Of a DNA stretch of 64,000 nucleotides, positions 5,179 through 64,000 are shown one piece after another; positions within the stretch are counted from its first letter, which is position 1, and every line of letters begins with the position of its first letter. A program made the position numbers and the translations under genes. The stretch spans positions 1,712-65,711 of the forward strand of contig NYZE01000005.1 of NCBI GenBank assembly GCA_002685965.1. Direction: 5' to 3'. Under the pieces are notes generated by a model. That model saw only the letters and a list, made by a program, of their open reading frames with translations, ran no database searches and was not told the DNA's origin. Source of the stretch: Planctomycetota bacterium. Lineage in GTDB: Bacteria; Planctomycetota; UBA1135; GCA-002748355.

Positions 5179-5254
<76 letters not shown>

Positions 5255-12160: not shown

Positions 12161-12163
12161 ACC

Positions 12164-13603: not shown

Positions 13604-13619
13604 GGCACGAGCTCACCCA

Positions 13620-14498: not shown

Positions 14499-14508
14499 CG
14501 CGACCCTG

Positions 14509-18370: not shown

Positions 18371-18409
18371 CCGGGCGAACTTAGCGCCATCCCCGAGGCC
18401 GGAGTAGAC

Positions 18410-33417: not shown

Positions 33418-34881
33418 CTACTTCTTCTTCCTGCGCATCAACAGCAATCGCTTGAGCGGGTCCGGGTGCGAACGCTCTTCGAAGAGCTCATACTTGGCGT
33501 GGAAGTCCGTCAGGGAAGCGACCGCAAGTTCGGGGCCGCGCCAGAAGGGGTTGTGGAACAGCACGAAGTCGGGCTCGGTCTCGCGGAACCACCAGGCAAA
33601 GTCGCCGCGCGACATGGCGTCGACGCCACCTTTGGTCACCAATCCCCACATGTCGATGATGCGCCAGTTCTCGAGTTCGTAGCCGAGCACGCCGATCTCG
33701 GCACACGCGATCGACGCGCCTTCGGGAAAGCGTTCGCGCAGCGACTTCGCGAGACTCGCGTAGTGTGGGTAGTAGGACACCGACTTGTAGTGCAGCGCGT
33801 TGGCGTCGCGCACGACGATCGGGCTCGGTGCGACGGGGTAGAGGTAGCCGATCACGAGGCAAGCGGCCACCGTGCGTGCCACGGCGCGCTGGTGCCATAG
33901 AACCTCGACGATCACCGCGATGCCGAGGGTCAGCGTCAGGTTGAGCGGTATGTAGTACCAGAGGTAGTTGGGCAGGTTGAGCACGGCGTAGAGCGTTGAC
34001 TGCCCGAGACCGAAGACGACCAGCGGCCAGCAAGGGTGGCGCCGTGCCAGCGCCACCGCAGAGCCGACTGCGCCAAGCGAAATGAAGCCGACTTGCCAGA
34101 CCGTGTTCCATGGCTTGTCGAGCCGGATGTTCGCGAAGTTGCCGAGCTGGCCGACGACGTTCTTGACGAAGATCCAGCCTTCGCCGTGCAGGCCGGACTC
34201 GGTCTGTGCGAGCTTGGCGCCGAGGGTCTTCGGCACGAAAGAGCCGAACAGGGACCATGAGATCGTCGCCCAGGTCAGCAGCGGGACGACGAACAGCAAC
34301 AGGGCGAACCCGAACTCGCGCCACTGCGACTTCGGCTGCGTCCAGAGATAGTGCACGCAGATCGTTGTCGCCAGGACGACGCCATCACCTCGCGTCAGGC
34401 AGAGCGCCGCGAGCAAGATGGCGCATAGCTTGAATCGCCGGCGGGTGTAGCACCACGTCGCGGCGGTCGCGAAGCCGAGGATCAGCGGCGCGTCCATGCC
34501 GATCAGCCAATAGAGATACGGCAGGGACATGACGCACGCGCATGCGACGATCGCCGCGACCCACCCGCGCGCGCTGAACAGCAGGAAGGTGAACGTCCCG
34601 GTGGCGCCGACACCGAGGCCGAAGAGCAGGACTTGCGCAAGCTCGTAGCGGCCGCCGCTGAGCCACGACGCGAGTGTCAGCAGCAGCGTGTTGCCGGTCG
34701 AGGTTGCGCCGTCGACCCATTCACCCGGGTTGTAGACCCAGCCGCGTCCCTCGAGCAGGTTGCGCGCATAGCGCAGGTAGATCATCGAGTCGTCGACCTG
34801 GCACGGTTGCTTGAGCCATGCGAGGTACAGTGCGGCCCCTGTCGTCAGCGCTACGAGGGCTACTAGGCGTCGCACGGCCAC
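33418..34881 (-). CDS. GT-C-like polytopic membrane glycosyltransferase (arabinofuranosyl/mannosyl-transferase-like N-terminal motif)
   Basis: 487 aa. CQVDDSMIYLRYARNLLEGRGWVYNPGEWVDGATSTGNTLLL (DD motif plus conserved loop seen in uncharacterised GT-C proteins), about 11 TM, soluble C-terminal domain. Confidence 0.55.
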   Translation of the reverse strand: MAVRRLVALVALTTGAALYLAWLKQPCQVDDSMIYLRYARNLLEGRGWVYNPGEWVDGATSTGNTLLLTLASWLSGGRYELAQVLLFGLGVGATGTFTFLLFSARGWVAAIVACACVMSLPYLYWLIGMDAPLILGFATAATWCYTRRRFKLCAILLAALCLTRGDGVVLATTICVHYLWTQPKSQWREFGFALLLFVVPLLTWATISWSLFGSFVPKTLGAKLAQTESGLHGEGWIFVKNVVGQLGNFANIRLDKPWNTVWQVGFISLGAVGSAVALARRHPCWPLVVFGLGQSTLYAVLNLPNYLWYYIPLNLTLTLGIAVIVEVLWHQRAVARTVAACLVIGYLYPVAPSPIVVRDANALHYKSVSYYPHYASLAKSLRERFPEGASIACAEIGVLGYELENWRIIDMWGLVTKGGVDAMSRGDFAWWFRETEPDFVLFHNPFWRGPELAVASLTDFHAKYELFEERSHPDPLKRLLLMRRKKK

Positions 34882-35120: not shown

Positions 35121-35154
35121 CGTCAGAAGCGATACGTCAGAAGCGATACGTCAG
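35121..35154. repeat. Short tandem duplication, 14-bp unit cgtcagaagcgata x2.4, overlapping the radical-SAM stop codon
   Basis: Read directly: cgtcagaagcgata cgtcagaagcgata cgtcag. The last partial copy contains the TGA (35153-35151, minus strand). Confidence 0.9.
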
Positions 35155-36809
35155 GCTGCCGCTTCTTCTGTCTTCTTCTTCTTCCCGCTGAACCATCCCT
35201 TGATGTTCACCCGCACCTTCCTGCGGATGTCGATCAGGAAGGTCTCCATCTTGCGGGTCTCCTTGCCGACGAGCGAGTTCCACAGTGTCGAGACGAGCCG
35301 CCACGGCCGCACTCCATAGGAAACAGCGTAGAAGTTGAGCAACGTCCAGACGCGCCAGCGTGAGAGCTGTTTGGCGGTCATGGTGTAGCTGTAGTTGTTG
35401 TCCTCACGCACGCCGCCTTCGTTGGCGAAGATCGGCGTCAACAGGAAGTCGTCGTTGAGCGTGATGTGCCCTTCGGCCTTGAGCTGGTCGTAGAGTTCGG
35501 TGTTCGGAATCGGGAAGAAGAAGCCGAACGCCATGTCGGTGATGCCGAGCCAGGCGAGCTTGCGCGCGAGTCGGACCGTCTGCTTGAGATCCTTGGGCGT
35601 GTCCTCGGGGAAGCCGGCGATGAAGAACGCAGCGACGACGAGCTTGTGCTTGGATGCCGCCCTGACCGCGCGGACCAGCGACTCCTCTTTCATCTGCTTC
35701 TTGACCCGCTTGCGAGTCTCGGCGCTGCCGCTCTCAGGCGCGTAGTTGAGCGACTTGCCGTTGGTCTTGGCCAGCCACATGGCGACTTCGTCGTCGATGA
35801 CCTCGACGCGGGTGCCCGACGGTAGCTGCCAGATGATCTTCTCGTGCAGGCCGCGGTCGTAGAGCTCCTTGCAGAAATCGATGATCCACTGCTTCTTGAG
35901 GATTGCGGTCAGGTCGTGGAACGGGAAGTTGTTGGCCCCGTACTTCGCGTGCATGTGCTCGATCTCGTCACACACATCGACGGGGTCGCGGGCATACCAC
36001 CGGGTCGTCCACATCCTGGGCGAGGAGCAATACGTGCACTGGTAGGGGCAGCCGCGCGTCGCCATCAGCGGCACGGTCATCCCGTAGTGGATGCCGGTAA
36101 CGAGGCGTCGCTCGTCGTAGGTCTTGATGTCGAAGAGGTCCCACGCTGGCCACGGCAGTTCGTCGACCGCTTTGGTGCGGTCGCGAGCCTTCAAGCTCTT
36201 GGTGGGCATGCCGTTGGCATCGCGGTACCAGATGCCTTCGACGTTCGCCCACTTGGCATCGTTGCCGCTTCGTACCAAATCCTCGAGGGCCGCGAACAAC
36301 TCGACCGCGCCTTCTTCGCCCTCGCCTAGCACGATGTAGTCGATCGGAGACTCGGCCATCGAGTAGTCGGGCAGTCCGGTGAAGTGCTCGCCGCCGCACA
36401 CGATCGGCGTGTCCGGGAAGCGCTCTTTCATCTTGATGATGATCTCGCGCACGATCGGCCACGAGAACGACCACATGTTGGTCACGCCGAACGCTTCGGC
36501 TTCCGGGTCGAGGCGGTCGACGAGCTGGTCGGGTGTCAGGCCGAGCGCCGAGATCTGTTTGCGCAACCCGGGCGTGACCTGGTCGGGTGCTTCGCCGACC
36601 GCATCGGCGACGGACACATCATGTCCGGCCTTCTGCAAAGCAGCCGCGATGTATGCCAGTCCGAGAGGCAGGCTCGGACGCAAGGCGGTCATCGCGTAGA
36701 CATTCAGGTAGACCGGCGGATGGATCAGTTGGATCTTCACGTACGGCTCAGGATGTGGCTGTCTCTGGTGGCGCTTCGATCGGGTAGATCGAAGGTGGTG
36801 AGGCGGCAT
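35151..36809 (-). CDS. B12-binding-domain radical SAM enzyme (class B rSAM; substrate unknown)
   Basis: 552 aa. N-terminal cobalamin-binding-like domain (IQLIHPP..., LGLAYIAAALQKAGHDVSV); rSAM cluster motif ATRGCPYQCTYCSSP (CxxxCxxC). Confidence 0.8.
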   Translation of the reverse strand: MPPHHLRSTRSKRHQRQPHPEPYVKIQLIHPPVYLNVYAMTALRPSLPLGLAYIAAALQKAGHDVSVADAVGEAPDQVTPGLRKQISALGLTPDQLVDRLDPEAEAFGVTNMWSFSWPIVREIIIKMKERFPDTPIVCGGEHFTGLPDYSMAESPIDYIVLGEGEEGAVELFAALEDLVRSGNDAKWANVEGIWYRDANGMPTKSLKARDRTKAVDELPWPAWDLFDIKTYDERRLVTGIHYGMTVPLMATRGCPYQCTYCSSPRMWTTRWYARDPVDVCDEIEHMHAKYGANNFPFHDLTAILKKQWIIDFCKELYDRGLHEKIIWQLPSGTRVEVIDDEVAMWLAKTNGKSLNYAPESGSAETRKRVKKQMKEESLVRAVRAASKHKLVVAAFFIAGFPEDTPKDLKQTVRLARKLAWLGITDMAFGFFFPIPNTELYDQLKAEGHITLNDDFLLTPIFANEGGVREDNNYSYTMTAKQLSRWRVWTLLNFYAVSYGVRPWRLVSTLWNSLVGKETRKMETFLIDIRRKVRVNIKGWFSGKKKKTEEAAA

Positions 36810-36979
36810 GAACTCCGGATGGTGCAGGCTCCCCCCGACTCGAAGGCAAGTCTACCTCGAAAAGCGCCCACGGGGCGATGCAAGCGGGCTATTGCCGCAC
36901 CGTTGCCCAAGACTCCGGCGCAGGCGAGAGTCCGGCGCACTCGCCCCAGCCAGACTACGCCGAGGACCTGGACTCAGCT

Positions 36980-38095
36980 TCATCTTGCGAGGGCGTCTCG
37001 TAGTGCGGTGACGACGCGGCGGACGGAGGTCTCGCGGGCGCCGTGACCCATGAGGCCGATGCGCCACACCTTGCCCTTGAGGGTGCCGAGCCCGCCGCCG
37101 ACCTCGATGTGGTGTGCACTGCGCAGGTGTTTCTGCACGGCGCCGGGGTCGACGCCGTCGGGTACGACGACGGATGTCAGCATGGGCGTGCGCAGGTTTT
37201 CCGGGACGAGGCACGATAGGCCGATGGTCTCGAGTTCGGTGTACAGTGACTGCGCGGCCGCACGGTGTCGTTCGAAGCGCGCTTCCATTCCCTCGTCGAA
37301 CACGTCGTCGAGGCCGGCGGCGAGGCCGTAGATCGAGCTGATAGGTGCCGTGTGGTGGTAGACCCGGTCGCTGCCCCAGTAAGACGACAGCAGGTTCACG
37401 TCCAGGTACCACGACGTTGGCTTGTTCTTGCGGTTGCGCGCCTTCTCGAGCGCTGCTTCCGAGAAGCTCACCGGCGATAGACCTGGTGGGACACCGAGGC
37501 ACTTCTGCGTTCCCGAGTACGCCGCGTCGACTCCCCATTCGTCGAGTGCGACGCGCGTGCCGCCGAGGCTCGTGACGCAGTCCATGAGTACTAGCGCGCC
37601 GGCGCCCTTGGCTGCGGCGCAGATCGGCTCGGGTGGTTGCAGCACACCGGTCGACGTCTCGGCGTGCACGAAGCAGACGAGCTTGGTGTCGCCGTTGGCG
37701 ATCGCCTGCGCCATCGCCGCAGAGTCGAGCGCCGTGCCGTAGTCGGCCCTTACCTCGATGGCGTTGCCGCCCTGGCGCTGGACGAGGTCCTTCATCCGCT
37801 CGCCGAACACGCCGTGGATGCCGACAACGACGCGGTCGCCCGGCTCGACAAGGTTGACGATGCACGCCTCCATGCCGGCGCTGCCGGTCGCCGAGATCGG
37901 CAGCGTGAAGTCGTTCTCGGTCGAGAACAGCGCGCGCAGGTCCGCCTTGACCCGGTCCATCAAGCCGAGGAATTCGGGGTCGAGGTGCCCGAGCACGGGT
38001 GCGGACTGGGCGGCGAGCACGCGATGCGACACGGGCGAGGGCCCCGGTCCGAGCAGTAGCACTTCGGTCGGATGGAACGGTGCTCTCTCGGTCAT
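36980..38095 (-). CDS. Class V aminotransferase (alanine-glyoxylate / serine-pyruvate aminotransferase-like)
   Basis: 371 aa. LLLGPGPSPVSHRVL..., PLP-Lys context YSGTQKCLGVPPGLS. Confidence 0.8.
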   Translation of the reverse strand: MTERAPFHPTEVLLLGPGPSPVSHRVLAAQSAPVLGHLDPEFLGLMDRVKADLRALFSTENDFTLPISATGSAGMEACIVNLVEPGDRVVVGIHGVFGERMKDLVQRQGGNAIEVRADYGTALDSAAMAQAIANGDTKLVCFVHAETSTGVLQPPEPICAAAKGAGALVLMDCVTSLGGTRVALDEWGVDAAYSGTQKCLGVPPGLSPVSFSEAALEKARNRKNKPTSWYLDVNLLSSYWGSDRVYHHTAPISSIYGLAAGLDDVFDEGMEARFERHRAAAQSLYTELETIGLSCLVPENLRTPMLTSVVVPDGVDPGAVQKHLRSAHHIEVGGGLGTLKGKVWRIGLMGHGARETSVRRVVTALRDALAR

Positions 38096-52222: not shown

Positions 52223-53362
52223 CTAGGGCGCGAGGTTTGCTCTGCCTGCCGCAGCATCGTTGTAGAGCTGTCGATACCGCTCAACGGTATTGGCCAGCGG
52301 ATAGGTCCGGGCCACGTGATCGTGGTTGGCATGCCCCAGGCGGTCGCGCAGGACAGGGTCGCGTAGTAGCTCGTGCATGCGGTCGCGGTAGAGGTCCTCG
52401 TGGTCCACGGGCACGACGCAGCTGCTGCTCTCGGGTGGGAGCATGGCGGCGACGTCGCCGACTGCAGTGCTGAGCACCGGGAGGCGCATCGCCATGGCCT
52501 CGAGGATCGACATGGGCATTTGCTCTGTCTTCGAGGAGAGGGCGAACACGTCGAGCGTACTGTAGGCCACTTGGACGTCCTCGGTGTGGCCGGGAAAGTG
52601 GACGCGGTCGCGGATGCCGAGTTGGTCTGCTGCCGTGACGAGTTCTTTCTTGTCGGGGCCGTCGCCGAAGAAGACCAGGTGCGGGCAGTCGGGCGCGCTG
52701 GCGAATGCACGCAGGAGAGTCATGTAGCTCTTCTCGCCACGGAGTCCGCCGACGCTGCCGATGATCATGGCGTCCTGTGGTAGGTCAAAGCGTTCGCGCG
52801 CCGTGGTCTTGGCGATGGGCTGGAAGCGGTCGACGTCGATGCCGTTGGGCACGAAGTGCACCAGCTTGCGGGGGACGCGCCAGCTCTCGAGCGCAGTGCG
52901 TTCGAGGCGTTGCGACGGTACGACGAGCGCATGAACCGACTTGAGTAGCACGCGGCGAGCGAGCACACGGCGGCGCTTCTGTGCGACCATCTCGTCGGGG
53001 CGGAAGCCTTCCTCGTGGTGAATGACGCCGCGGATCTTGGCGAGCCACGCACCGAGCACTGCCTCGATCGCGCCCCAGTTATAAGTCAGCACGATGTCAG
53101 GTTTCTTCGACTCGATGAAGCTGCCCAGTCGTCGCGCGATGAGTAGGCCCTTCTTGAGGTCGACCGGTCCGCATTCGCGGACGAGCTCGCACGGTAATCG
53201 GCTCGCATACCCCGTGCGCCCGTCCATCGCGAACACGCTGTGCTCGAAGCCGTCCCCTAGCTCGGCGATCAGCTGCGCGGTGCGGACCTGCGGTCCACCC
53301 GCGTCGAAGGTCGCGAACACATGGCAGCAGTGAAGCGTCTTGGTCATGACGGCGTCCATCAC
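52223..53362 (-). CDS. GT4-family (GT-B fold) glycosyltransferase
   Basis: 379 aa. C-terminal E..... E region FALSSKTEQMPMSILEAMAMRLPVLSTAVGD. N-terminal half resembles the PEP-CTERM/EpsH1-associated sugar transferase pattern from memory (unverified). Confidence 0.75.
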   Translation of the reverse strand: MMDAVMTKTLHCCHVFATFDAGGPQVRTAQLIAELGDGFEHSVFAMDGRTGYASRLPCELVRECGPVDLKKGLLIARRLGSFIESKKPDIVLTYNWGAIEAVLGAWLAKIRGVIHHEEGFRPDEMVAQKRRRVLARRVLLKSVHALVVPSQRLERTALESWRVPRKLVHFVPNGIDVDRFQPIAKTTARERFDLPQDAMIIGSVGGLRGEKSYMTLLRAFASAPDCPHLVFFGDGPDKKELVTAADQLGIRDRVHFPGHTEDVQVAYSTLDVFALSSKTEQMPMSILEAMAMRLPVLSTAVGDVAAMLPPESSSCVVPVDHEDLYRDRMHELLRDPVLRDRLGHANHDHVARTYPLANTVERYRQLYNDAAAGRANLAP

Positions 53363-53429
53363 CCGTCACCTATCGGTCGTGCGGGGCGTGGGGTTACAGT
53401 GACAGTCGCAACCGCCCACTCTCAACGCC

Positions 53430-53711
53430 ATGCCGAAACAGCGAAAACCCGCCCTGACCGTCGTCTGCCCGCACTGCGGCACGACCTTCGATCCAGAGCG
53501 GCTGGCCTGTCCAGAGTGTGGCAGCGACGAGCGGACCGGCTGGAAGTCGGCCGAAGAGATCGACTATCAATCGCTCGACCTGCCCGAAGGCGACGAACTA
53601 GGCACCGGGCGGCGCATGCCGCGTTGGATGTTCGTGCTGATCGTGATCCTGCTCTTGTGGGCCATGTTGGAGTCGGTTGGCGCAGGGCCGTTAGCGTGGC
53701 TGGTCAGCTGA
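53430..53711 (+). CDS. Small zinc-ribbon protein with C-terminal TM helix (hypothetical)
   Basis: 93 aa. CPHCGTTF...CPECGS (CxxC-N12-CxxC), then WMFVLIVILLLWAML. Confidence 0.5.
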   Translation: MPKQRKPALTVVCPHCGTTFDPERLACPECGSDERTGWKSAEEIDYQSLDLPEGDELGTGRRMPRWMFVLIVILLLWAMLESVGAGPLAWLVS

Positions 53712-54501
53712 GGTGACGCAGGCGTCCGCGCGGATCCAGGAGCGCGCTGCGGAGCCAGACGACCGCGATCCCCGACCCGAGGGCTGTGCTGCCAGCCAAC
53801 AGGAACATGATCAGGATCTGGTAGCGGACCGCGAGTTCGGGCGGCGAGCCGCCGAGGATCTGACCGGTCATCATGCCGGGCAGTGAGACGAGACCGACGA
53901 CGGTCATCGCGTTGAGCATCGGCGTCATGCCGGTGCGAATGCCGTCCTTGGTGAGGGAGTGCACGGCTTCGGCCGGAGTCGCGCCGAGGCACAGTAGGGC
54001 GTCGACTTCGCGCCGCCGTTCGAGCATCGCGTTCGTGAAGCGGTCCATGGCCAGCGAGATCGCGGTGAGGCTGTTGCCGAGCACCATGCCACCGATCGGG
54101 ATCAGGTAGGCGGGGTCCGACCAGTCCGGCGGCTGGATGACGACGAACACCGCATAGGTCAGCATCAGGAAGCACGGCACCAGGATCGATCCCGTCGCGA
54201 TCCAGCGCACGCCACGGAAGCGTCGCTTCATGCGACCGACCGTGGCCTGACCGGCGAGCAGACTCATGCCGGTCAAGATGGCCACGACGAGCCACGGCGA
54301 TCCGATCGCAAACACGTGGTGCAAGACGTAGCCGATCAACAGCAACTGGACCAGCGTCCGCAAGCTCGCGATCAGAAGCTCGCCTTCCATGCGCAGGCGG
54401 AACCAGAGGGACAGCGCAGCGTTGACCAGGACGCACAGCGAGATCAGCGTCAGGTCGAACCAATCGAGTGCGACCGGGCCAGCTTGCAAGAGAGCCATCA
54501 T
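53704..54501 (-). CDS. fetB: ABC transporter permease, YbbM/FetB (UPF0014) family
   Basis: 265 aa with about 7 TM. LIASLRTLVQLLLIGYVLHHVF and GMMTGQILGG are family-like. ATGA overlap with the upstream ATPase gene. Confidence 0.7.
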   Translation of the reverse strand: MMALLQAGPVALDWFDLTLISLCVLVNAALSLWFRLRMEGELLIASLRTLVQLLLIGYVLHHVFAIGSPWLVVAILTGMSLLAGQATVGRMKRRFRGVRWIATGSILVPCFLMLTYAVFVVIQPPDWSDPAYLIPIGGMVLGNSLTAISLAMDRFTNAMLERRREVDALLCLGATPAEAVHSLTKDGIRTGMTPMLNAMTVVGLVSLPGMMTGQILGGSPPELAVRYQILIMFLLAGSTALGSGIAVVWLRSALLDPRGRLRHLS

Positions 54502-55130
54502 GCCGCCTTGACCTCGAACGTCTGCGCGTCGTCGTACGTGCCACCATCGTATGTCACCCAGACAACCGCGGTGCCGTTGGCTCGGCGATCGGCGATGATG
54601 CGGTTGACTATCCCCATACGCTGTTCATCGAGCCCGCTCGTTGGTTCGTCGAGCAACAGCACCTCCGGTGACAGCTGCAATGCGTTGACGAGGGCCACGC
54701 GTCGGTTCTCGCCGCCGGAGTACTCCAACATCGGTCGATCGACGACGTCTGTGAGGTCGAGTGCATCGAGCCAGCTTTGGAGTGCGGCACGCGGCGCGAC
54801 GTGGTCGCGGTTGCCGAGCAGTTGCCGCACGCGTTCGATGAGCTCTTGCCCGGTTCCCTCGAAGCGCACCGGATCTTGCGGCATGTACGTGACACGGCGG
54901 CGTAGCTCGGCACACGGGATGTCGCTGACAGCCGTGCCGCGAAAGCGGATATCACCGACCGGTTCCGGGTCCAGGTCGATCATGCGTCGCAGTAGGCGCG
55001 ACTTGCCGGCGCCCGACTTACCTCGAACGACGATCATCTCGCCGGGGCCGAGTCGCAGCACGCCGTCGCCGTGTGGCCCGCAGAGGCCCGGGTAGTCCCC
55101 GATGGTCAGAAGTGGCGTGTCAGACGTCAT
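54498..55130 (-). CDS. fetA: ABC transporter ATP-binding protein, YbbL/FetA-like
   Basis: Track ORF to 55541; ATG at 55130 gives MTSDTPLLTIGD. Walker A GKSGAGKS, signature YSGGENRR, Walker B LLLDEPTSGLD. Start lies 11 nt inside the end of hpnE. Confidence 0.8.
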   Translation of the reverse strand: MTSDTPLLTIGDYPGLCGPHGDGVLRLGPGEMIVVRGKSGAGKSRLLRRMIDLDPEPVGDIRFRGTAVSDIPCAELRRRVTYMPQDPVRFEGTGQELIERVRQLLGNRDHVAPRAALQSWLDALDLTDVVDRPMLEYSGGENRRVALVNALQLSPEVLLLDEPTSGLDEQRMGIVNRIIADRRANGTAVVWVTYDGGTYDDAQTFEVKAA

Positions 55131-56457
55131 TGGTGACTTGTCCGAGAGGATCCAGGGAGCTGCGCGCCGCGCCCTCGAGCGTCGAGGGGAGGCCTGTGGC
55201 GGTCCAATCACCGGCGAGCCAGAGTCCTTCGATGTGGGTTGGGCCTGGCGTCGGGCGCAGGTCGTCGATGCTCGGGCGGGGCGCGATCGTTGCGCGTGGT
55301 TCGCGGACCACGAGCGCCGAGGCGTGCGTTTCCTCGGGCCAGGGAGCCGTACGACCGAGGTGGTTGGCGAGCTGCCCGAGTGCGAGCGAGACGATGCGCG
55401 CCGCCGGCATGCCATCGAGATCGGTAGCGCCGCCGGCGAGCAGGCTCGCTGGGACGTCGGCCCGCACTGCGCCATCCAACCGTGGTCGCCGACACAGGAA
55501 ATGAAAGGGCTGGCCGCCGAGCAGCGCGACGATCGGATCATCGAACGGCACAGCTGTGGGCGGTAAGGCGACGTGCACCGTCACGAGGGGTGAGTTCGGT
55601 ATCCGGTCTGCGGCCGGCGCCACGGCGAAGCGCTTGGTGAGTGAGTGAGCGCTGCGCCAATCCAGGGCGACCACGAGTCGATCATGGTCAGCGAGCAGCG
55701 TGCCGTCGTCGAGGCGCACGGATGGCGCCGGTCGCCGGGCTTCGAGTGTGGTTGCGCGGTGGCCGAGTAGCACACGGTGCCCGTGCCGACCGAGCCAATC
55801 GCGGGCCGGTTTATCCAGGATGGCGTCCCAAGGCTCAACGGGAATCCACATCGCGCTGTGCGCGCGGTTACCCGCGAATGCCTCGCGCAGGGTCCCAACG
55901 AACAGCCCTGCATCGCACTGGTCTGGCTCGGCGTTCATGACCGCGCGGCACAACGGATCGAAGAGATACGTGCGCGCAGTTCCGTCGAAGCCGGCGTGGC
56001 GCAGCCATGTGGCGACAGTCACGCCACCCCGCGGCAATGGCAGAAACGGGGCAAGGCCTGCCAGCAGCAACTCGAAGCGTTGGGTCAGCTCGAGGCCACG
56101 GATGCCGAGAAAGCCGGCGACGAGGTGCAGCGGCGCTGGCAAGCGCTTCCCCGTCATTCGTTCGACTCTGCCCCCCTTGGAGAGCCAGGTCAGTTGGAGC
56201 GCGTCGGGGCGATGGAAGCTCTGCTCGGCGCCAAGCGCCCGCAGCACGCGACGGAATGCGCGGTAGCAGCCGAGCAGAACGTGGGGCCCGTTGTCGATTT
56301 TTTGACCGAGCCGACGCGCTGCCAGGGAGAACGCCCGTCCGCCGAGGTGGCGTCGTGCTTCGACCAGGGTGATGCGGAACCCAAGCTCGTGATGCCCGAC
56401 CGCCGCTGCGATTCCCGCAACGCCGCCGCCGAGTACGACGACACTGCGCTGGCTCAT
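55120..56457 (-). CDS. hpnE: Hydroxysqualene dehydroxylase (FAD-dependent amine-oxidase-like), HpnE
   Basis: Track ORF to 56781; ATG at 56457 gives MSQRSVVVLGGGVAGIAAAVG (GxGxxG), ...EARRHLGGRAFS. ATGA overlap with the hpnD stop. Adjacent to two squalene/phytoene-synthase paralogues. Confidence 0.75.
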   Translation of the reverse strand: MSQRSVVVLGGGVAGIAAAVGHHELGFRITLVEARRHLGGRAFSLAARRLGQKIDNGPHVLLGCYRAFRRVLRALGAEQSFHRPDALQLTWLSKGGRVERMTGKRLPAPLHLVAGFLGIRGLELTQRFELLLAGLAPFLPLPRGGVTVATWLRHAGFDGTARTYLFDPLCRAVMNAEPDQCDAGLFVGTLREAFAGNRAHSAMWIPVEPWDAILDKPARDWLGRHGHRVLLGHRATTLEARRPAPSVRLDDGTLLADHDRLVVALDWRSAHSLTKRFAVAPAADRIPNSPLVTVHVALPPTAVPFDDPIVALLGGQPFHFLCRRPRLDGAVRADVPASLLAGGATDLDGMPAARIVSLALGQLANHLGRTAPWPEETHASALVVREPRATIAPRPSIDDLRPTPGPTHIEGLWLAGDWTATGLPSTLEGAARSSLDPLGQVTNDV

Positions 56458-57311
56458 ATGCCGAACAGCGCCAAGTAAACCTTTCGCCACAACGGCACAC
56501 GCACGGGTGGCTGGACGAGTGATTGCGCACCGCGTGCTTCGACGCGTCTTCGCAGGTCGCGGTAGATCGTGCCCATGATGCGCGCCGGGCGTAGCGCACC
56601 CCGGTCGGCTTGGGGCAACAACTCTGCTGCCTCGTCGTAGAGTCGGTCGGCGCGCTGGTGTTCCGCGGCGAGCAGCTTCTCGATCGGCCCGCCGTCGGCT
56701 ATCGCGTGGCCAGGCGGCGTGCTGCACAGCCAAGATGGGTCGACGTTGTGTTCCTGCAGCGCGTCGAGCGGTAGGTAGCAACGTCCGTTGTCACAGTCTT
56801 CGCCGATGTCGCGCAGGATGTTCGTGTACTGCAACGCGATGCCCAGGCGCTCGGCGTAGCCGCGTGAGCGCTCACGGTCGGCGCCGAACACCGGGAGGCA
56901 GGCAACGCCGACCGCGGAGGCGACCCGTCGCATGTACGACTCGAGCTCGGCAAACGTGGCGTAGGTGCGGTCAGCGAGATCCATGCGTACGCCGGCGCAG
57001 ACCTCGTCGAACGGCTCGCGATCGAGGCCGAACTGCGCTGCGGCGCGATGCAGGGCGTAGCCGAGGGGAGTCTGCGGTGTGGCCGCGAACGCGGCTTCGA
57101 GCTCATTCTCCCAGAACACGAGATGTTCGTTTGCCTGGTCTCGGTCGCCGAGATCGACCGCATCGTCGACGACCCGGCAGAAGCCATAGACTGCGAGCAG
57201 AGCCCGCCGCCGTCCCGGCGACAGGAAGGCGAACGAGATCAGGAAATTCGAGCCGGCCGCTCGTGCGATTTCGAGCGGGCTGCGTTTGGCTGCGACGGGG
57301 ACTACAGGCAT
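56454..57311 (-). CDS. hpnD: Presqualene diphosphate synthase, HpnD (squalene/phytoene synthase family)
   Basis: Track ORF to 57542; ATG at 57311 gives MPVVPVAAKRSPLEIARAAGSNFLISFAFLSPGRRRALLAVYGFCRVVDDAVD (first Asp-rich motif). YTNILRDIGEDCDNGRCYLP (second). Confidence 0.75.
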   Translation of the reverse strand: MPVVPVAAKRSPLEIARAAGSNFLISFAFLSPGRRRALLAVYGFCRVVDDAVDLGDRDQANEHLVFWENELEAAFAATPQTPLGYALHRAAAQFGLDREPFDEVCAGVRMDLADRTYATFAELESYMRRVASAVGVACLPVFGADRERSRGYAERLGIALQYTNILRDIGEDCDNGRCYLPLDALQEHNVDPSWLCSTPPGHAIADGGPIEKLLAAEHQRADRLYDEAAELLPQADRGALRPARIMGTIYRDLRRRVEARGAQSLVQPPVRVPLWRKVYLALFGI

Positions 57312-57401
57312 CGGTTCGTCAGGGTACACGAGTCTGATCGCCACTTCGATTGATGCGAAGCCTCGATATGCTGCTGTGTTCCCGGATGCGAGCTCACCGA
57401 C

Positions 57402-58238
57402 ATGACGACGGCTTGCCCAATCTGCACGAGCGACACGGTTTCCCTTTGGAAGACCGACGAGGCGGATTATCGGCGTTGCCCGAAGTGTGACTACCTGAAG
57501 CCCTGTGCCACGGGGCTCAAGCCCCTCGAGCTCAACGTCCAAATCTACACCGAGAAGTTCGACGAACGGCTCAGCACCGTGTCGGTCGTCGATCCCAAAC
57601 GCGCGCGCAAGTATGGCCGGCTACTCGCCGCGGTCGCGTCCAGGCGGAGCACCGGGAACTTCCTCGACATCGGTTGCGGCGCGGGTCGCCTGCTGCAGGT
57701 CGCCGCAGCGCGGCAGTGGCAAGCGTTCGGCGCCGACCCGGCTATGACGAATGCAGCGAGTCAGAAACGGGATGGCATCACCATTGTCCCGCGCGTGCTG
57801 CAGGAGTGCGGCTTCGAGGACGGCTTCTTCGATGTCGTCCACGCCAACGAGGTCGCCGAGCACGTGCCTGACGTGTCCGACTTGGTCGGCGAAATCGCAC
57901 GCATTCTTCGGCCCGGTGGCGTCGTGGTCTTTCGTACGCCCCACTACCGCAGCTGGTCCGCACGACTCGTCGGGTCACGTTGGCGCCAGTACGGCCTCTG
58001 GGGCAAGGGACACGTCGGCTTCCTGTCGGTGAAGACCTTTCGCTACCTATTCAGTCAACACTCGCTGCGGCTCAATCGAGTCGAGACGCAACACTTCTCG
58101 GTGCGTGACTGGTGGGGTGAGAAGCGAAGCCCGTTGCGCAGGATCGTGCACAGAGTCTGTCGCCTCGTCGAGCCAATCGTGCGCCTGACGCACAATGGCG
58201 AGAGGCTGACGGTGTGGGGCGAGAAGCCTTCCGCCTGA
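57402..58238 (+). CDS. Class I SAM-dependent methyltransferase with N-terminal zinc ribbon
   Basis: 278 aa. CPICTS...CPKCDY (CxxC-N17-CxxC), motif I FLDIGCGAGRLLQV, VVHANEVAEHVPD, LRPGGVVVFRTP. Confidence 0.8.
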   Translation: MTTACPICTSDTVSLWKTDEADYRRCPKCDYLKPCATGLKPLELNVQIYTEKFDERLSTVSVVDPKRARKYGRLLAAVASRRSTGNFLDIGCGAGRLLQVAAARQWQAFGADPAMTNAASQKRDGITIVPRVLQECGFEDGFFDVVHANEVAEHVPDVSDLVGEIARILRPGGVVVFRTPHYRSWSARLVGSRWRQYGLWGKGHVGFLSVKTFRYLFSQHSLRLNRVETQHFSVRDWWGEKRSPLRRIVHRVCRLVEPIVRLTHNGERLTVWGEKPSA

Positions 58239-59078
58239 TCAAAGCCGCGGCTTCCAGGGCAACAGCGTGCGCAGCAAGAGCTCCGGTGCATCGGCCTTGT
58301 GAATCGTCGGTCGCCGGCGTGCTACGTCGTAGTTCATGGTCCGCATGCGGTCCACGATGACACAGGCGGCCTGAAGGACCGCACGGATCTCGAGACCGGA
58401 GCGGCCACCGAGGCGTCGCGGCAACTCGAACCCCTCCGCGAAACGCGCGGCACAATCGTCGACCAGTTCGGCGACGACACGTTGGAGGCCGCGCGATGTA
58501 GTGTCCGCAGCGAGGTCGTCCACGCTCACGCCGAAGTGGAGCATGCGGTCGGCGGGCAAGTAGACGCGGTCACGTTCCAGGTAGTCGGAGCGAACGTCCT
58601 GACAGTGGTTGAGGATCTGCAGGCCCGTGCAAATGCGATCCGAGAGGTGTTCGTTGACGGCGTCGGCGCGTCGGAACAGGTGCAGCATCAGGCGCCCGAC
58701 AGGATCGGCGCTGTCGCGGCAATAGGAGAGCAGGTCGTCCATGTCGGTGTAGCGACCCTGGGCGAGGTCACGCTCGAACGCATCGAGCAACCGAAACAGC
58801 AGTGTTTCGGGCAGCGCGAACTCGCGCACGGTGCTCGCCAGGTTGACCAGTAGCTGAATCGACGGGCGTCCGTCGAGTGCATCGCGCGTGGCACTGCGCC
58901 ACTCGTGCAAGGCGGCGAGGTCGCCCGCTTCATCGACGAGGTCGTCCGCGACGCGTGCGAAGGCATAGAGACGGTGCACGTGCGGCCGCAGCGCTTTCGG
59001 TAGGAATCGAGAGCCCACCGGGAAGTTCTCGTAGTGCTCCTGTGCGAGCCTGGTTGCGTTGTCGACGTCTGATCCCAT
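58239..59078 (-). CDS. hpnC: Hydroxysqualene synthase, HpnC (squalene/phytoene synthase family)
   Basis: Track ORF to 59183; ATG at 59078 gives MGSDVDNATRLAQEHYENFPVGSRFLPKALRPHVHRLYAFARVADDLVDE (HYENFPV is HpnC-typical). ILNHCQDVRSDYLERDRVYLP. Confidence 0.75.
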   Translation of the reverse strand: MGSDVDNATRLAQEHYENFPVGSRFLPKALRPHVHRLYAFARVADDLVDEAGDLAALHEWRSATRDALDGRPSIQLLVNLASTVREFALPETLLFRLLDAFERDLAQGRYTDMDDLLSYCRDSADPVGRLMLHLFRRADAVNEHLSDRICTGLQILNHCQDVRSDYLERDRVYLPADRMLHFGVSVDDLAADTTSRGLQRVVAELVDDCAARFAEGFELPRRLGGRSGLEIRAVLQAACVIVDRMRTMNYDVARRRPTIHKADAPELLLRTLLPWKPRL

Positions 59079-59173
59079 GGCGGTCCGCCCCGAAGTTACC
59101 GGGTGGACGGCATCACGTCGCCGTTCAGCGCCGTCGGAAGAGAACCTTGAGCTCACTGAGCTGGTCGCGGCCG

Positions 59174-59215
59174 ACAGAGTCACTCAAGAACAGAGTCACT
59201 CAAGAACAGAGTCAC
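59174..59215. repeat. Short intergenic tandem repeat, 16-bp unit acagagtcactcaaga x2.6
   Basis: Read directly. Lies 96-137 bp upstream of the hpnC start (minus strand) and downstream of the C-methyltransferase-like gene. Confidence 0.9.
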
Positions 59216-59328
59216 GGGGAACTCGGCTGTCAGGAGTGTGCGCAGACCGATGTCAGCCCTCAGCGTTTCTGGCGTGATCCCGTGCGCACCTAGGCACAGG
59301 GCTGCCGCCGTCCAATGGCCGCGTGCTG

Positions 59329-60483
59329 CTACACGGCGACGATCTCGGCCTCGAGCCCTAGCTGTGCGCACTCTGCCTCGATCTCGGCACTGTAGATAGG
59401 GTTCATGACGACGATGCGATCGGGCCGAACAGGCAACGCACCCTCGGGCCCCGTCACCTCCTGCCCCGTGCCGGGCACGAAGCGCCCTTGCTTGCGTGGG
59501 TTCTTGTCGATCACGCACGCGATTTCGCTACCACCCTGCACGACATTGAGGAAGGTCACGCCCTTGGAGCCCGCACCCCAGATCGCAACCTTGTGCCCCT
59601 GCTCGCGCCAGTCCGCGAGGCGCTCACCCCAAACGCGTTGCCGCTCCGCGAACCTCTCGCCGAAGACCTCGCACAGGGCGGCGACTTCGCGCACCGCCTC
59701 GTCGGCCACGTCGGGTGGTTCGGGCACGGCCGTCGGACGCGCATCGATACAGAGGAACTGCTCGTCGTAGGCTGTCCAGACAGCGTCGACTTTGAAGCCA
59801 CATGCGACGAACAACCGCGTCAGTGACGCGGGCGTGTAGTAGGCGACGTGCTCGTAGATCACGTCCCAGACACCGAGGTCGCGCAGGGTCCAGAGCCCGT
59901 TCGGTACCTCGAAGTAGAGCGGCGTCGCGCCGGGTAGGGCGGCGTCGTGGATCTGCCCCAGGAAGTCGCGCGGGGCGGACACGTGCTCGAGCACGTGCTG
60001 CGACACGATCAGGTCGGCGTGCTGACTTCTGTCGTCGGCGCTGAAACGCTCCTTCACGATCGTGGTCGCCGTGCTCGCCGGGTCACCGACGAAGCTCTCG
60101 TCGAAGCCGATCCCCGTGTTTTGGCCCGCCTCGCACAGCATGGCGAGGAACTCGCCCTTGCCCGAACCGACCTCGATGACTGTCTTCTCGGTCAGGGCGT
60201 GTTTCTCGACCAGTCGTTGCACGAGCGTTCGCGCGTAGTCGAGGAAGGTGTCGGAGAAGTGCAGCGACGTTTCATAGTCGGGTGAGTAGCGGACGAGCTC
60301 TTCGTCGAAAGCGCTGTTCCACACGAGCCCGCTCAGCGGGCAGTAGCCGAGCTCGATGTCGCCGCGCGGCGCTTCCAGTGCATGCTCACGGGTCGGCCAC
60401 AGCACGTTGCAATAGACCGGCACGCGTGCGAGCCAGAAGAACGGGATCAGGTCGACGTCGGAGAAGATCGGTGAAGCGGTCAC
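59329..60483 (-). CDS. Three-domain SAM-dependent methyltransferase resembling NDP-hexose C-methyltransferases (TylCIII-like), Zn-binding Cys pairs degenerate
   Basis: 384 aa. Motif I VIEVGSGKGEFLAML; C-terminal Rossmann-like VAIWGAGSKGVTFLN. The N-terminal region that normally carries CxxC...CxxC reads PIFSDV...VYCNVLW...LGYCPLSGLVW. Confidence 0.65.
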   Translation of the reverse strand: MTASPIFSDVDLIPFFWLARVPVYCNVLWPTREHALEAPRGDIELGYCPLSGLVWNSAFDEELVRYSPDYETSLHFSDTFLDYARTLVQRLVEKHALTEKTVIEVGSGKGEFLAMLCEAGQNTGIGFDESFVGDPASTATTIVKERFSADDRSQHADLIVSQHVLEHVSAPRDFLGQIHDAALPGATPLYFEVPNGLWTLRDLGVWDVIYEHVAYYTPASLTRLFVACGFKVDAVWTAYDEQFLCIDARPTAVPEPPDVADEAVREVAALCEVFGERFAERQRVWGERLADWREQGHKVAIWGAGSKGVTFLNVVQGGSEIACVIDKNPRKQGRFVPGTGQEVTGPEGALPVRPDRIVVMNPIYSAEIEAECAQLGLEAEIVAV

Positions 60484-60601: not shown

Positions 60602-61462
60602 CTACCGGCGGCCGCGTCGACGGTCGCCGATGCGCGTTGCCTTCTCGTCGCGAACCGGCAGCTTGGCGCGGTCCAGTAGCTTCTTCTCGGCCTTGAGCAG
60701 CTTCTTTTCCAGCGCGACGAGGGCGGCGGTGTCCTTGTCGAGCTTGGCCTTCTTTGCGACCGGAATCGTCCCTTTCTTGGCCAAGCGCGCCATCTTGTTC
60801 TGCAGTGTCCTCTGCTTGCCTTCGTACAGCATGTAGTCGTTGAGGAAGTTGCGGTACTGCTTCACGAACTTGGGCAGCTGCACCTTGCCCTTGGCGAAGG
60901 TCTTGGCGGCGCGTGTGACCAGTGCGACCAACACCCTCGGCTTGCCCTTGTAACCCTTCATCGAGGCATTGCCCGCGACCTTGCCCTTCTCGTTGAACGC
61001 TACGAACATCGGCGACTTCTTGCCGAACATGCCGCGAGCCATTTCGTCTTGTGAAAGGTCGACTCGGCCACACTTGTAGTAGCGGAGCGCGATGGCGATG
61101 TTCGATGGCGCGCGGAACATGAGGCTCTCAAAGTTCTCGTGCTTGCGCTTGTCGGTGCGCGGGTCGAACAGGTAGAGCAGCGACAGATGCCCATCCTTGC
61201 TGGCGCTCTTGACGAGCGTCGTTTCGGCCAGGCCGTTCATGCCTTTGAAGAGCATCTGTTCTGACAGCGTGACGTCGACGAAGTAGGTCCCCATCCGGCC
61301 CAGGATGGCCTCAGATGGGCCGAAGCCGCGGCCACCGCCTGGACCGCCCTGCGCGCCCTGCCCGCCGGCCCCGCCGCGCTGGGCCGGCAGGGCGATGCAC
61401 GAGAGCAGAGCTACCAGAGCCCAAGACAACGGGGAGCGGGGGAGGTTCGTCATCGGTGACAC
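60602..61462 (-). CDS. Hypothetical secreted protein; Gly-rich linker, unrecognised globular domain, Lys-rich C-terminal helix
   Basis: 286 aa. Signal LSWALVALLSCIALPAQ, then GGAGGQGAQGGPGGGRGFG. C-terminus KKAKLDKDTAALVALEKKLLKAEKKLLDRAK. High GC3 in frame. Confidence 0.55.
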   Translation of the reverse strand: MSPMTNLPRSPLSWALVALLSCIALPAQRGGAGGQGAQGGPGGGRGFGPSEAILGRMGTYFVDVTLSEQMLFKGMNGLAETTLVKSASKDGHLSLLYLFDPRTDKRKHENFESLMFRAPSNIAIALRYYKCGRVDLSQDEMARGMFGKKSPMFVAFNEKGKVAGNASMKGYKGKPRVLVALVTRAAKTFAKGKVQLPKFVKQYRNFLNDYMLYEGKQRTLQNKMARLAKKGTIPVAKKAKLDKDTAALVALEKKLLKAEKKLLDRAKLPVRDEKATRIGDRRRGRR

Positions 61463-61779
61463 TCCGGAATAGGACGACTGCGATGGCCCCCCTTATACGT
61501 GCTGATCCTTGCGTTGGTCAGTAGTTCGAGCCTGTTGATACATCGCGGAAATAGCCTCCGGTGGCTCCCGGGGACAGAGACAGGTTGACCCTCGAGCGAG
61601 GTCTACACGAGCAGAGACCTCGCTGTCAGGCGTCGGATAAGTGCTCCAATGGGGTCGCTGTTGCGCCGCTGGCCAGCGCGGGGTGAGTTGGTTGTGTGCC
61701 CTTGGGTTGGCCGTAAGATCTAGGTTCGCGACTCGATCTACTGCAAATCGCCTCGTCGCTCCTGGCCCTTGGAGACTCC

Positions 61780-64000
61780 ATGACCATGTTCCGCTCTCTC
61801 GCCGTTGTGGCCGCTGTGACCACGCTCCTTCCAAGTCCCTGCGCGTTGGCCCAAGGCCCGATCGACGCGGGACCACCTCGCACGGTCGTCATCCCCATCG
61901 AGCCGGCGCGGCCTGCCGGAAAAGACGCCTACCTTCCTCAGGCGCCGGCGTCGTTGCTCGAGGAGATGAAGTTCAACAAGCACAAGCACCGAGTCGTTCC
62001 CGAAGGGCAAGGCGGCTTACCGCTTCCCAATAGCGCGGAGGTCCAGCCGGCCGAGCACTCTCCACAGGCGGGTCCCGGAGACTTCAGGTACTTCCTGAAC
62101 GAGCCCGTACAGCCCGCGGGGGCCGGAATCAGCGGCTCTCTCGTCGAGCCCGCCGGCGCGGTCAACCGCGATGTCGTTCTCTACACCGGCAACACGTTCG
62201 CTGCGCTGTCCAAGGACTCCGGCAAGTCATGGACCCACATCAACCCGAGCACGCGCTTCCCCGCTCCCGACGGGCCGATGTGCTGTGACCAGCGTGTCAT
62301 CCACGTGCCGAGCCCGAACATGACGCTGTGGCTCCTCGAGTATCGCTACAGTTCGTCCAAGGGCACCGGGAGCCTCCGCATTGCCTTTGCGAAGGGTCGG
62401 GACGAGCTAAGAAAGAACGTGTTCGCCTCGTTCGTCGTCAACCCGAAGACCTTCGGCTTCGGCAACGGGTTCTTCCTCGACTACAGCGACCTCACGTACG
62501 GCTCCAAGCACCTGTACGGCTCCGCCATCGTCGCCCCCGGTGGCACGACGGGGAGCATCTCCTACGTCCTGTGGCGCGCGGCTCTCACCGATGTCTACGA
62601 CGGTGGCAATGTGGCCATCTCGTACTACACGGCGGCCGCCCTCGGCGGCTACGGCAACTACCGCTTCGCCCAGGGCTCGACCTCGAACATGTACTGGGCC
62701 GCCCACGAGAGCACGACCATCCTGCGCGTCTACAAGTGGAACGAGACCTCGGGCAACGCGTCGATCTTCCGCAAGACCATCAGCAAGTGGAGCGCGACGC
62801 CCACGCCGGCGCCGGGCCCCGATGCGCGGGACTGGACGGGGTTCCGCTGGACGAACAACTGCGTGCTCGGGGGTTACGCCAACTCGTCGGAGGTCGGGTT
62901 CCTCTGGACCTCCGGCAGCGTGAGTGGGCGGCCGCGGAACTTCGTCCGCGTTGCGCGGTTCAACCCGACCACCCTTGCGCTGATCGGCCAACGGGACATC
63001 CACAGCGCGAACGTTGCCTACCACTTCCCCTATGCCGCGACCAACAGCAGCGGCCACATCGGGGTGACGATCTGCTTCGGCGGGGGGAAGTGGTACCCCT
63101 CGGCCGGCGCGTTCATCATCGACAACTACACCTCCTGGGCGGGTCTATCCGCGGTGGAGACGATGCGCACGGGCAAGGCGGGTCCGCCGAGCAACCGTTG
63201 GGGGGACTACTTCCACTGCTGGCGCAACTCCAATCTCACGTCGACCTGGAGCGGGATGGGGTTCACGAAACAATCGGCGACCGGCTCCGGAGAGCCCCGC
63301 TACGTCTGGTTCGGTCGTGAGGTAAACCAGCCGACCTGGGTCAACCTCTACGTGCAGTCGACGCCTGCCACCGGCGTCAAGATCACCCTGCCCCAACTCG
63401 ATCGCTTAGGGCGCGGGGATGGTCTGACAAACTTCTCGCGCAGCTACGCTCCCAACCAAGGCTACGAGTTGACCGCGCCGCTCACGCATCTCGTGGGTCG
63501 CACCACATACGCCTTCGAGCGGTGGTTGCTGCGGACGGCACCGACCGCGGGCTTCGTCAATCAACCCATCGGGAAACTTGACCTCTCGGTTTCGAACATC
63601 GTGTCGCTCGACGACACGGCAATCGCGCGCTACGTAATCCGACGTGTGTTGAACGTTCGCTCGCTCTACGCGAGCAACGTGCCGATCACGGTCAGCGTCA
63701 CCGACATCAACGGGAAGAAGAACGGCGCGACGAACTTCACGCGTTTCTATCGCAACGCCCAGGCGCTCACGCTTACGGCACCGGCCATCGTCGGCGGGCG
63801 GCGCTTCTACCGCTGGCGTTTGAACAACGCCAACCAACCCGCGGGCAACAAGACGCTGTCCGTGTCGATGACCGCCACCCACACCGCCGATGCGGTCTAC
63901 GGGTACCAGACCGTGGGGACCTACGCGAGCTTCGGCGTGGGCTGCGCCGGCAGCAACGGGACTCCCAGCCAGAAGGCCTCCGGAACCCCGGAGGTCGGGT
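61780..64000 (+). CDS. Large secreted protein with BNR/Asp-box (sialidase-like propeller?) N-terminal region; continues beyond window
   Basis: Not in ORF track (no stop in window). Own translation from ATG 61780: MTMFRSLAVVAAVTTLLPSPCALAQGP... with no stop through 63999. Asp-box ALSKDSGKSW (SxDxGxxW). High GC3 in this frame. The track ORF 62328-63320 is in a different frame. Confidence 0.75.
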   Translation, partial: MTMFRSLAVVAAVTTLLPSPCALAQGPIDAGPPRTVVIPIEPARPAGKDAYLPQAPASLLEEMKFNKHKHRVVPEGQGGLPLPNSAEVQPAEHSPQAGPGDFRYFLNEPVQPAGAGISGSLVEPAGAVNRDVVLYTGNTFAALSKDSGKSWTHINPSTRFPAPDGPMCCDQRVIHVPSPNMTLWLLEYRYSSSKGTGSLRIAFAKGRDELRKNVFASFVVNPKTFGFGNGFFLDYSDLTYGSKHLYGSAIVAPGGTTGSISYVLWRAALTDVYDGGNVAISYYTAAALGGYGNYRFAQGSTSNMYWAAHESTTILRVYKWNETSGNASIFRKTISKWSATPTPAPGPDARDWTGFRWTNNCVLGGYANSSEVGFLWTSGSVSGRPRNFVRVARFNPTTLALIGQRDIHSANVAYHFPYAATNSSGHIGVTICFGGGKWYPSAGAFIIDNYTSWAGLSAVETMRTGKAGPPSNRWGDYFHCWRNSNLTSTWSGMGFTKQSATGSGEPRYVWFGREVNQPTWVNLYVQSTPATGVKITLPQLDRLGRGDGLTNFSRSYAPNQGYELTAPLTHLVGRTTYAFERWLLRTAPTAGFVNQPIGKLDLSVSNIVSLDDTAIARYVIRRVLNVRSLYASNVPITVSVTDINGKKNGATNFTRFYRNAQALTLTAPAIVGGRRFYRWRLNNANQPAGNKTLSVSMTATHTADAVYGYQTVGTYASFGVGCAGSNGTPSQKASGTPEVG

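Follow-up and report, generated by a model that had tools for sequence, protein, structure and literature searches.

Why should genes for squalene synthesis be joined by overlapping codons to an ATP-binding cassette (ABC) exporter? The question is raised by a 64,000-nucleotide (nt) stretch of DNA from an uncultivated Planctomycetota bacterium (contig NYZE01000005.1, positions 1,712 to 65,711), hereafter called the window, in which hpnD and hpnE run directly into an ATPase gene and a gene for a UPF0014-type permease. An earlier note on this DNA proposed that the ABC pair is a dedicated exporter of squalene or a derived lipid. Our analysis points in another direction. We hold with moderate confidence that the locus is a clade-specific inherited operon, in which the exporter keeps the generic function of its family and is co-expressed with hpnDE rather than acting as a squalene pump. 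What is new is the operon architecture, which joins two known modules, the hpn squalene genes and a UPF0014/ABC pair.

Gene content and junctions of the hpn–ABC locus

Four genes on the minus strand are joined by three overlaps, which, when read directly, were exactly as the earlier note had claimed. The stop codon of hpnD and the start codon of hpnE share the tetranucleotide ATGA (56457-56454, a 4-nt overlap). The ATG of the ATPase gene at position 55130 lies inside hpnE, whose stop codon ends at 55120, resulting in an 11-nt overlap. Finally, the ATPase stop codon and the permease start codon again share ATGA (54501-54498, 4 nt). On the basis of the overlapping codons and the lack of an internal terminator (zero terminator-like sites), hpnD-hpnE-ATPase-permease is a predicted four-gene translationally coupled unit, as had been proposed. 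The locus contains the following features (aa, amino acids; SAM, S-adenosylmethionine; FAD, flavin adenine dinucleotide).

53430 to 53711, plus strand: small zinc-ribbon protein (93 aa; Pfam Zn_ribbon_3, 27.5 bits)
53704 to 54501, minus strand: UPF0014 (FetB/YbbM/STAR2 family) ABC permease (265 aa; Pfam PF03649, 273.1 bits)
54498 to 55130, minus strand: ABC ATPase, FetA/YbbL-like (210 aa; Pfam ABC_tran, 83.9 bits)
55120 to 56457, minus strand: hpnE, FAD-dependent hydroxysqualene dehydroxylase (445 aa; TIGR03467, 304.5 bits, cutoff 283.05)
56454 to 57311, minus strand: hpnD, presqualene diphosphate synthase (285 aa; TIGR03465 as best match, 255.8 bits)
57312 to 57401: divergent intergenic gap of 90 nt between the methyltransferase gene and hpnD, the presumed promoter site of hpnD-hpnE-ATPase-permease
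57402 to 58238, plus strand: SAM-dependent methyltransferase with an N-terminal Cys4 zinc ribbon, CxxC...CxxC (278 aa; Pfam Methyltransf_23, 87.1 bits, and Methyltransf_11, 65.6 bits)
58239 to 59078, minus strand: hpnC, hydroxysqualene synthase (279 aa; NCBIfam TIGR03464, 270.1 bits, cutoff 250.45)

Profile searches supported the gene identities that had been assigned to the locus. HpnC and HpnE scored above the cutoffs of their families, with HpnD (148.5 bits) and zeta-carotene desaturase (51 bits), respectively, as the next NCBIfam matches, and their Pfam matches were SQS_PSY (195.8 bits) and Amino_oxidase (125.3 bits). The product of hpnD also matched SQS_PSY (225.8 bits) and had HpnD as its best NCBIfam match, but its score was slightly below the equivalog cutoff of 278.6. 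Because this score is twice that of any other family (the runners-up were CrtB at 125.7 and HpnC at 123.1) and the gene lies directly upstream of hpnE, its place in canonical clusters, we treated the protein as a divergent HpnD. In NCBI, MAE75405.1 is identical to the window HpnC and is named 'squalene synthase HpnC', the exact HpnD protein is MDP6424406.1 ('squalene/phytoene synthase family protein'), and MAE75403.1 (296 aa), from the same 90% cluster as the window HpnD, bears the name 'squalene synthase HpnD'; HpnE is labelled 'hypothetical protein'. As judged by family scores, HpnC, HpnD and HpnE make up the predicted three-enzyme route from farnesyl diphosphate via presqualene diphosphate and hydroxysqualene to squalene. 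In agreement with the earlier note, no squalene-hopene cyclase domain was found in the scanned large open reading frames (ORFs) of the window, and likewise no other hopanoid-specific gene.

The PF03649 match of the permease spans residues 14-250 of 265 (gathering score 22.6), which places the protein in the UPF0014 family. NCBI labels it 'iron export ABC transporter permease subunit FetB'. However, its score against the NCBIfam FetB family (TIGR00245) was 130.6 bits, under the equivalog cutoff of 410, and it is 27% identical to Escherichia coli FetB, a protein set apart by a long branch of its own; for these reasons an iron function is unproven. The ATPase had FetA (NF007601) as its top NCBIfam match at 115.1 bits, under the equivalog cutoff of 292. 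With both equivalog cutoffs failed, we advise against classing the two predicted transport proteins as iron exporters. Pfam matches of the pair were limited to UPF0014, ABC_tran and generic AAA domains, with no RND/MMPL-type membrane domain of the HpnN type. Horizontal transfer was considered and rejected, as there was no compositional signal: GC content and GC content at third codon positions (GC3) of all six genes were typical of the window.

The methyltransferase gene had been overlooked in the earlier note. It lies on the opposite strand between hpnC and hpnD, convergent with hpnC (the stop codons abut at 58238/58239) and divergent from hpnD. Because this gene intervenes, hpnC is outside the coupled unit in the window, and hpnD therefore needs its own promoter, presumably in the gap from 57312 to 57401. 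A consensus scan detected no sigma-70-like site within the gap, and a promoter and terminator scan of 53000-59600 returned zero terminators and, as its only promoter-like site, a weak one within the methyltransferase gene. From this layout we infer that the four genes from hpnD to the permease gene are co-transcribed. The methyltransferase gene was not present at the hpnC-hpnD junction of five related loci (L001, L003, L009, L173 and L175). Its tblastn matches were confined to L091, which is from the same population as the window, so that the gene was found in one species only.

Many other same-strand genes of the window also abut closely or overlap, as seen in its first-start ORF list (e.g., 15760-17055/17052-17780, 4 nt; 47057-47716/47716-48513, 1 nt). 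Since such junctions are frequent in this genome, the overlaps mark an operon and yet are unexceptional in themselves.

Distribution of the hpnE–ATPase link

We fetched the neighbourhoods of the close permease clade and also scanned GTDB genomes and metagenomes. Close relatives of the permease were 54-99% identical to it, after which identity dropped to about 50% or less among permeases of cyanobacteria, Burkholderiaceae, Myxococcota, other Planctomycetota and others. We found that hpnE leads directly into the ATPase gene in seven lineages of one Planctomycetota clade, which is uncultivated and of marine and sediment origin. The overlap was 11 nt in the window, 8 nt in L009 and 4 nt in each of L092, L001, L003, L173 and L175. 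Thus the adjacency is not unique to this genome, the same overlapping link being present in six further lineages. At the same seven loci, the hpnC-hpnD and hpnD-hpnE spacing was variable, ranging from -25 to +76 nt.

The link was not present throughout the clade. In L006 two genes (1.7 kb) separate hpnDE from the ABC pair downstream, and in L005, L007, L171, L172 and the sister lineage L174 the pair is located elsewhere without nearby hpn genes, a state that was scored on single contigs. The permease of one of these unlinked pairs (L172) is 68-70% identical to the window permease. The state of L008 and L010 was indeterminate, as their contigs end early. The converse arrangement was found in L095 (Ga0256830_1006884, 1130-6133), in which hpnCDE is kept and the ABC pair is absent. 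The gene order in L095 is hpnC-hpnD-hpnE, a zinc-ribbon gene, another gene and RNase D, matching the syntenic block of the window and L003 except that exactly the ABC pair is lacking.

The zinc-ribbon gene serves as a marker of this block. In the window it is convergent with the permease gene and overlaps its 3' end by 8 nt, whereas the copy in L095 overlaps the hpnE end instead. Homologues downstream of the cluster were identified in L009 (10896-11156), L003 (12327-12518), L175 (9954-10178) and L095 (4241-4546). The protein is about 90 aa long with a C-terminal hydrophobic tail, and identity among neighbours is 48-55% (50% with the L009 copy).

The 79 UPF0014 loci from outside the clade had no hpnC, hpnD or hpnE within 10 kb. 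These loci include hopanoid-producing Burkholderia and Paraburkholderia, as well as metagenome-assembled genomes (MAGs) of Pirellulales and Planctomycetaceae. When 80 metagenomic hpnE loci were inspected from the other side, an ABC pair was nearby in clade members only. We also carried out a Pfam scan of 144 genes flanking the UPF0014 pairs in the 79 outside loci. No isoprenoid or common theme emerged among these genes, and the neighbours were highly variable. The only recurrent neighbour was a gene of the AsmA family (AsmA/DUF748/YhdP). It was present in 11 loci, in divergent orientation and about 1 kb upstream of the ATPase gene, and each of these loci is from Burkholderia, Paraburkholderia or Caballeronia (L023, L042, L045, L048, L051, L056, L058, L060, L061, L071 and L087); CobW was a neighbour in 3. 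Proteins of the AsmA type have been implicated in moving phospholipids between membranes. Because the 11 loci represent one synteny at the level of a family, we assign this neighbour low weight.

Origin of the link

In the HpnE tree the linked loci form one clade, with L006 and L095 as its sister group. The permease tree recovers the close clade as monophyletic, with linked and unlinked members intermixed. The linked subgroups are identical in the two trees, which fits a single origin followed by co-inheritance. The simplest history would be a single fusion in the clade ancestor, vertical co-inheritance and several later disruptions.

The flanks of the locus are shared as well. Upstream, an arginyl-tRNA synthetase (ArgRS)-phosphoribosyltransferase-sigma70-...-peptidase M19 block is found in L001, L003, L009, L173 and L175, and downstream, RNase D and CarboxypepD_reg proteins are found in the window, L001 and L003. 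In the sister lineage L174, peptidase M19 is still near the ABC pair. The linked lineages thus all fall within a single clade with syntenic flanks, and unlinked pairs are found in the sister lineage and at least four members of the clade. The hpn-ABC adjacency is apparently not conserved beyond the background synteny of the clade, and it is therefore weaker evidence of selection.

Function of the linked exporter

Our model is that a two-gene UPF0014-type ABC exporter was placed directly downstream of hpn(C)DE in the clade ancestor. The exporter would have lost its spacer and, presumably, its own promoter, such that its expression became dependent on hpnDE. One promoter upstream of hpnD would serve all four genes, and translation would be coupled via the overlapping stop and start codons. 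The task of the exporter would be efflux of a small polar solute, for example iron as proposed for E. coli FetAB. Co-expression could then reflect a stress-protection logic, in which triterpenoids or carotenoids protect the membrane while a harmful solute is removed, or it could be neutral capture. In support of this model, the link was repeatedly lost or rearranged (L005, L007, L171, L172, L174 and L095).

The permease sequence carries no sign of specialisation. No alignment columns were found that separate linked from unlinked permeases, and both groups have all of the polar residues that are conserved family-wide. The window permease keeps 52/52 columns that are conserved at ≥90% among 105 family members; although the GTDB loci were found by using two of the conserved motifs as search patterns, most of these columns are common to E. 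coli FetB, which is independent of that search. Conserved polar residues in predicted helices include R48, Q52, R90, N143 and R189, the SLPGMMTGQ motif, and Y227-Q228. A conserved polar core of this kind would suit a hydrophilic substrate path better than a pure hydrocarbon. The AlphaFold2 model of the permease has nine helical segments (mean predicted local distance difference test score of 78.6). UPF0014 is a family without a solved structure, and the permease had no match to a solved fold (best Foldseek E-value 0.096, with an empty sequence search).

Genes next to the ABC pairs of other clade members also bear on the model. In L174 (7303-8801) a universal stress protein (Usp) gene overlaps the ATPase gene by 4 nt, in L172 (593-3010) a faint TRASH-domain match and Fer4 (ferredoxin-like) proteins lie beside the ABC pair, and in L006 (8878-10840) and L008 a gene for a SEC-C motif protein overlaps the ATPase gene. 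These neighbours are weakly suggestive of a stress or metal context.

Several points weigh against our model. The most strictly conserved junction of the operon is that between hpnE and the ATPase gene, with an overlap in 7/7 linked lineages, and this strictness fits a functional coupling that is tighter than co-residence. The trees on which the inheritance argument draws are neighbour-joining trees without support values. The stress and metal hints are anecdotal, some of them being faint Pfam matches. Finally, iron export by E. coli FetAB is supported only indirectly and, because the permease fails the FetB equivalog cutoff, a 'family-typical substrate' is itself undefined.

The principal alternative is the one favoured by the earlier note, a dedicated triterpenoid transporter. 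Its substrate would be squalene, hydroxysqualene or a derived hopanoid or C30 carotenoid, which the pair would flip, extract or export, and translational coupling would keep the pair at a fixed stoichiometry to HpnE. In addition to a hpnE-ATPase junction that is tighter than the junctions within the pathway, the link persists at 54-76% permease identity, and the pair of L006 is still near hpnDE despite two inserted genes. The distance of the permease from FetB gives the iron label little weight, and the lack of a solved family structure or fold match leaves the range of conceivable substrates wide. Moreover, the searched literature offers only the RND protein HpnN and the candidates HpnM, HpnS and HpnT for such transport, and no Planctomycetota equivalent is described. 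However, the note had inferred this role from adjacency alone, and the wider survey did not bear it out. About half of the ABC pairs in the clade are unlinked and have no distinguishing sequence signature, L095 has the same hpnCDE block without the pair, and the conserved polar and charged helix residues are the same as those of FetB-like proteins from taxa that lack hpn linkage. No association was seen in Burkholderia or other hopanoid producers, and the flanking genes on both sides (the ArgRS to M19 block, RNase D and CarboxypepD_reg) are conserved as well. Squalene is an uncharged hydrocarbon that is consumed by membrane-associated enzymes of the inner membrane, and we know of no pathway that requires a squalene export step. 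For these reasons we regard a dedicated triterpenoid transporter as unlikely, though it is the best of the alternatives to an inherited operon with a generic exporter.

The ATPase H-loop and possible decay of the exporter

The window ATPase contains a Walker A motif (GKSGAGKS), a Q-loop (PQD), a signature motif (YSGGE) and a Walker B motif (LLLDEP). Its H-loop histidine is replaced by tyrosine at residue 194 (TAC, 54551-54549; VVWVTYDGG). All 13 homologues compared, E. coli FetA and the other examined clade members among them, have the histidine (WV[ST]H), and the tyrosine is fixed in population variants represented on 8, 5 and 1 contigs. As this residue is catalytic and the nucleotide-binding domain is presumed to be homodimeric, the exporter of the window species could be decaying or altered, a slow, regulatory or non-transporting remnant carried passively on the hpnDE transcript. 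Decay is not evident from the rest of the sequence, however, since the other ATPase motifs and the permease core appear intact, with all family-wide conserved positions of the permease retained. There are zero frameshifts or stops, GC3 is typical of expressed window genes, and some ABC proteins tolerate H-loop substitutions. We therefore consider this explanation doubtful, and less probable than a triterpenoid transporter.

An assembly artefact, in which a chimeric MAG contig or wrong start codons mimic the fusion, has nothing in its favour except that the window derives from a MAG, and we dismiss it because the locus proteins recur on 6-15 independent contigs of ≤83 kb in NCBI, JGI, ENA and Logan assemblies, one metagenome contig of 3.9 kb matches with 100% identity from the methyltransferase gene through hpnD, hpnE and the ATPase gene to the permease gene, independent gene callers yield the same overlapping layout in six other lineages, and the position of Walker A in the 210-aa ATPase (residues 37-44) is the one expected if translation starts at 55130. 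The NCBI counterparts of the locus proteins, MAE75400-MAE75405, match them exactly and come from a marine 'Planctomycetes bacterium' MAG whose locus tags begin with CMJ85_.

Other features of the window

Two sugar-modification genes flank the hpn-ABC unit, at 52223-53362 and 59329-60483, both on the minus strand. One encodes a GT4 glycosyltransferase (best NCBIfam match, the PEP-CTERM/XrtA-associated stp2 family, 176.6 against a cutoff of 409) and the other a two-domain C-methyltransferase (Methyltransf_23 and Methyltransf_14). Neither gene was found at the corresponding positions in related loci.

The regions 10691-19717 and 33418-34881 contain a cluster that suggests polyprenyl-phosphate-linked glycan synthesis, which is unexpected in a Planctomycete. 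The cluster includes a menaquinone (futalosine-type) UbiD decarboxylase, a GT87 glycosyltransferase, a Kdo/WaaP-type kinase, a methyltransferase and a uridine diphosphate (UDP)-glucose 6-dehydrogenase. Its UbiA-family protein scored above the decaprenyl-phosphate phosphoribosyltransferase cutoff (275.6 vs 234), and a weak arabinofuranosyltransferase-like protein is encoded further along.

On the minus strand at 35151-38095, a gene for a B12-binding radical SAM protein (552 aa, 35151-36809) lies beside one for a class-V aminotransferase. The radical SAM protein was considered as a hopanoid gene product and rejected, since it scored far under the cutoffs of HpnJ (91 vs 578) and HpnR (58 vs 650). 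Its best NCBIfam matches, BchE (156 vs 481) and a ladderane-type lipid radical SAM family (108 vs 360), were also far below cutoff. The top NCBIfam matches of the aminotransferase were pyridoxamine--pyruvate transaminase (200.4 bits) and PhnW-AepZ (195.9 bits), neither of which reached its cutoff.

At the thresholds used, neither Pfam nor NCBIfam gave a match for several long ORFs with high GC3. These are located at 61717-63999 and 12164-13603 on the plus strand, 60602-61462 on the minus strand, 14458-15834 on the plus strand and 19824-20975 on the minus strand. One of them, of at least 761 aa, continues past the window end.

Comparison with known systems and significance

The exporter half of the unit resembles the putative iron exporter FetA/FetB (YbbL/YbbM) of E. 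coli, which has the same layout of a gene for a small soluble ATPase followed by an overlapping UPF0014 permease gene. The E. coli genes (fetA, 515919-516596; fetB, 516583-517362) are not adjacent to isoprenoid genes, unlike the window pair, which has no spacer of its own and begins inside hpnE. Identity between the two systems is 27% for the permease and 33% for the ATPase, with most of the family-wide conserved residues shared. Rice STAR1/STAR2 and Arabidopsis AtSTAR1/ALS3 are likewise split systems, of bacterial type, of an ATPase and a UPF0014 permease and belong to the same family according to the literature; this likeness is by description and not by sequence. The plant pairs are eukaryotic, with a reported nucleotide-sugar substrate and no triterpenoid link. 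They are linked to aluminium tolerance, and Huang and co-workers reportedly observed UDP-glucose efflux by STAR1/STAR2 in 2009.

The biosynthetic half resembles canonical hpnCDE operons, among them Planctomycetes operons that supply hopanoid and C30 carotenoid synthesis, in having HpnC, HpnD and HpnE. It differs in that no ABC pair follows hpnE at about 70 hpnE loci outside the clade, and in that hpnC of the window is split off by the methyltransferase gene. Planctomycetes reportedly depend on HpnCDE only (PMC7306690, PMC9907078), and the word 'transporter' never occurs in the main texts of these two papers, which trace the evolution of HpnCDE in Planctomycetes and other bacteria. A 2025 microsynteny survey proposed HpnM, HpnS and HpnT as hopanoid transport factors around shc and hpnN (PMC12324291). 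Like the window pair, HpnN (RND) and the candidates HpnM, HpnS and HpnT (Mla-like or lipocalin-like) are encoded by transport genes tied by microsynteny to triterpenoid biosynthesis, but they belong to different protein families and are found around shc and hpnN instead of hpnE. The survey reports no UPF0014/ABC exporter, and the terms FetB, UPF0014, YbbM and permease are absent from its main text. The literature searched contains no mention of a link between hpn and UPF0014 genes, and to that extent the view that the arrangement is undescribed stands.

UPF0014 proteins (FetB/YbbM/STAR2/ALS3) are widespread in bacteria and plants, and their substrate assignments are only indirect. A codon-overlapping operon with squalene synthesis is among the few strong context clues for this family. 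If the link reflects nothing more than inherited co-expression, it is a caution that translational coupling and recurrence within a single clade do not prove a shared substrate. If instead the pair and the squalene genes are functionally linked, an unrecognised ABC step in the triterpenoid handling of Planctomycetota would be indicated, and the pair would be a candidate squalene exporter for metabolic engineering. A triterpenoid role, if true, would give the FetB/STAR2 family its first lipid substrate and would establish a route of triterpenoid traffic that does not depend on RND proteins.

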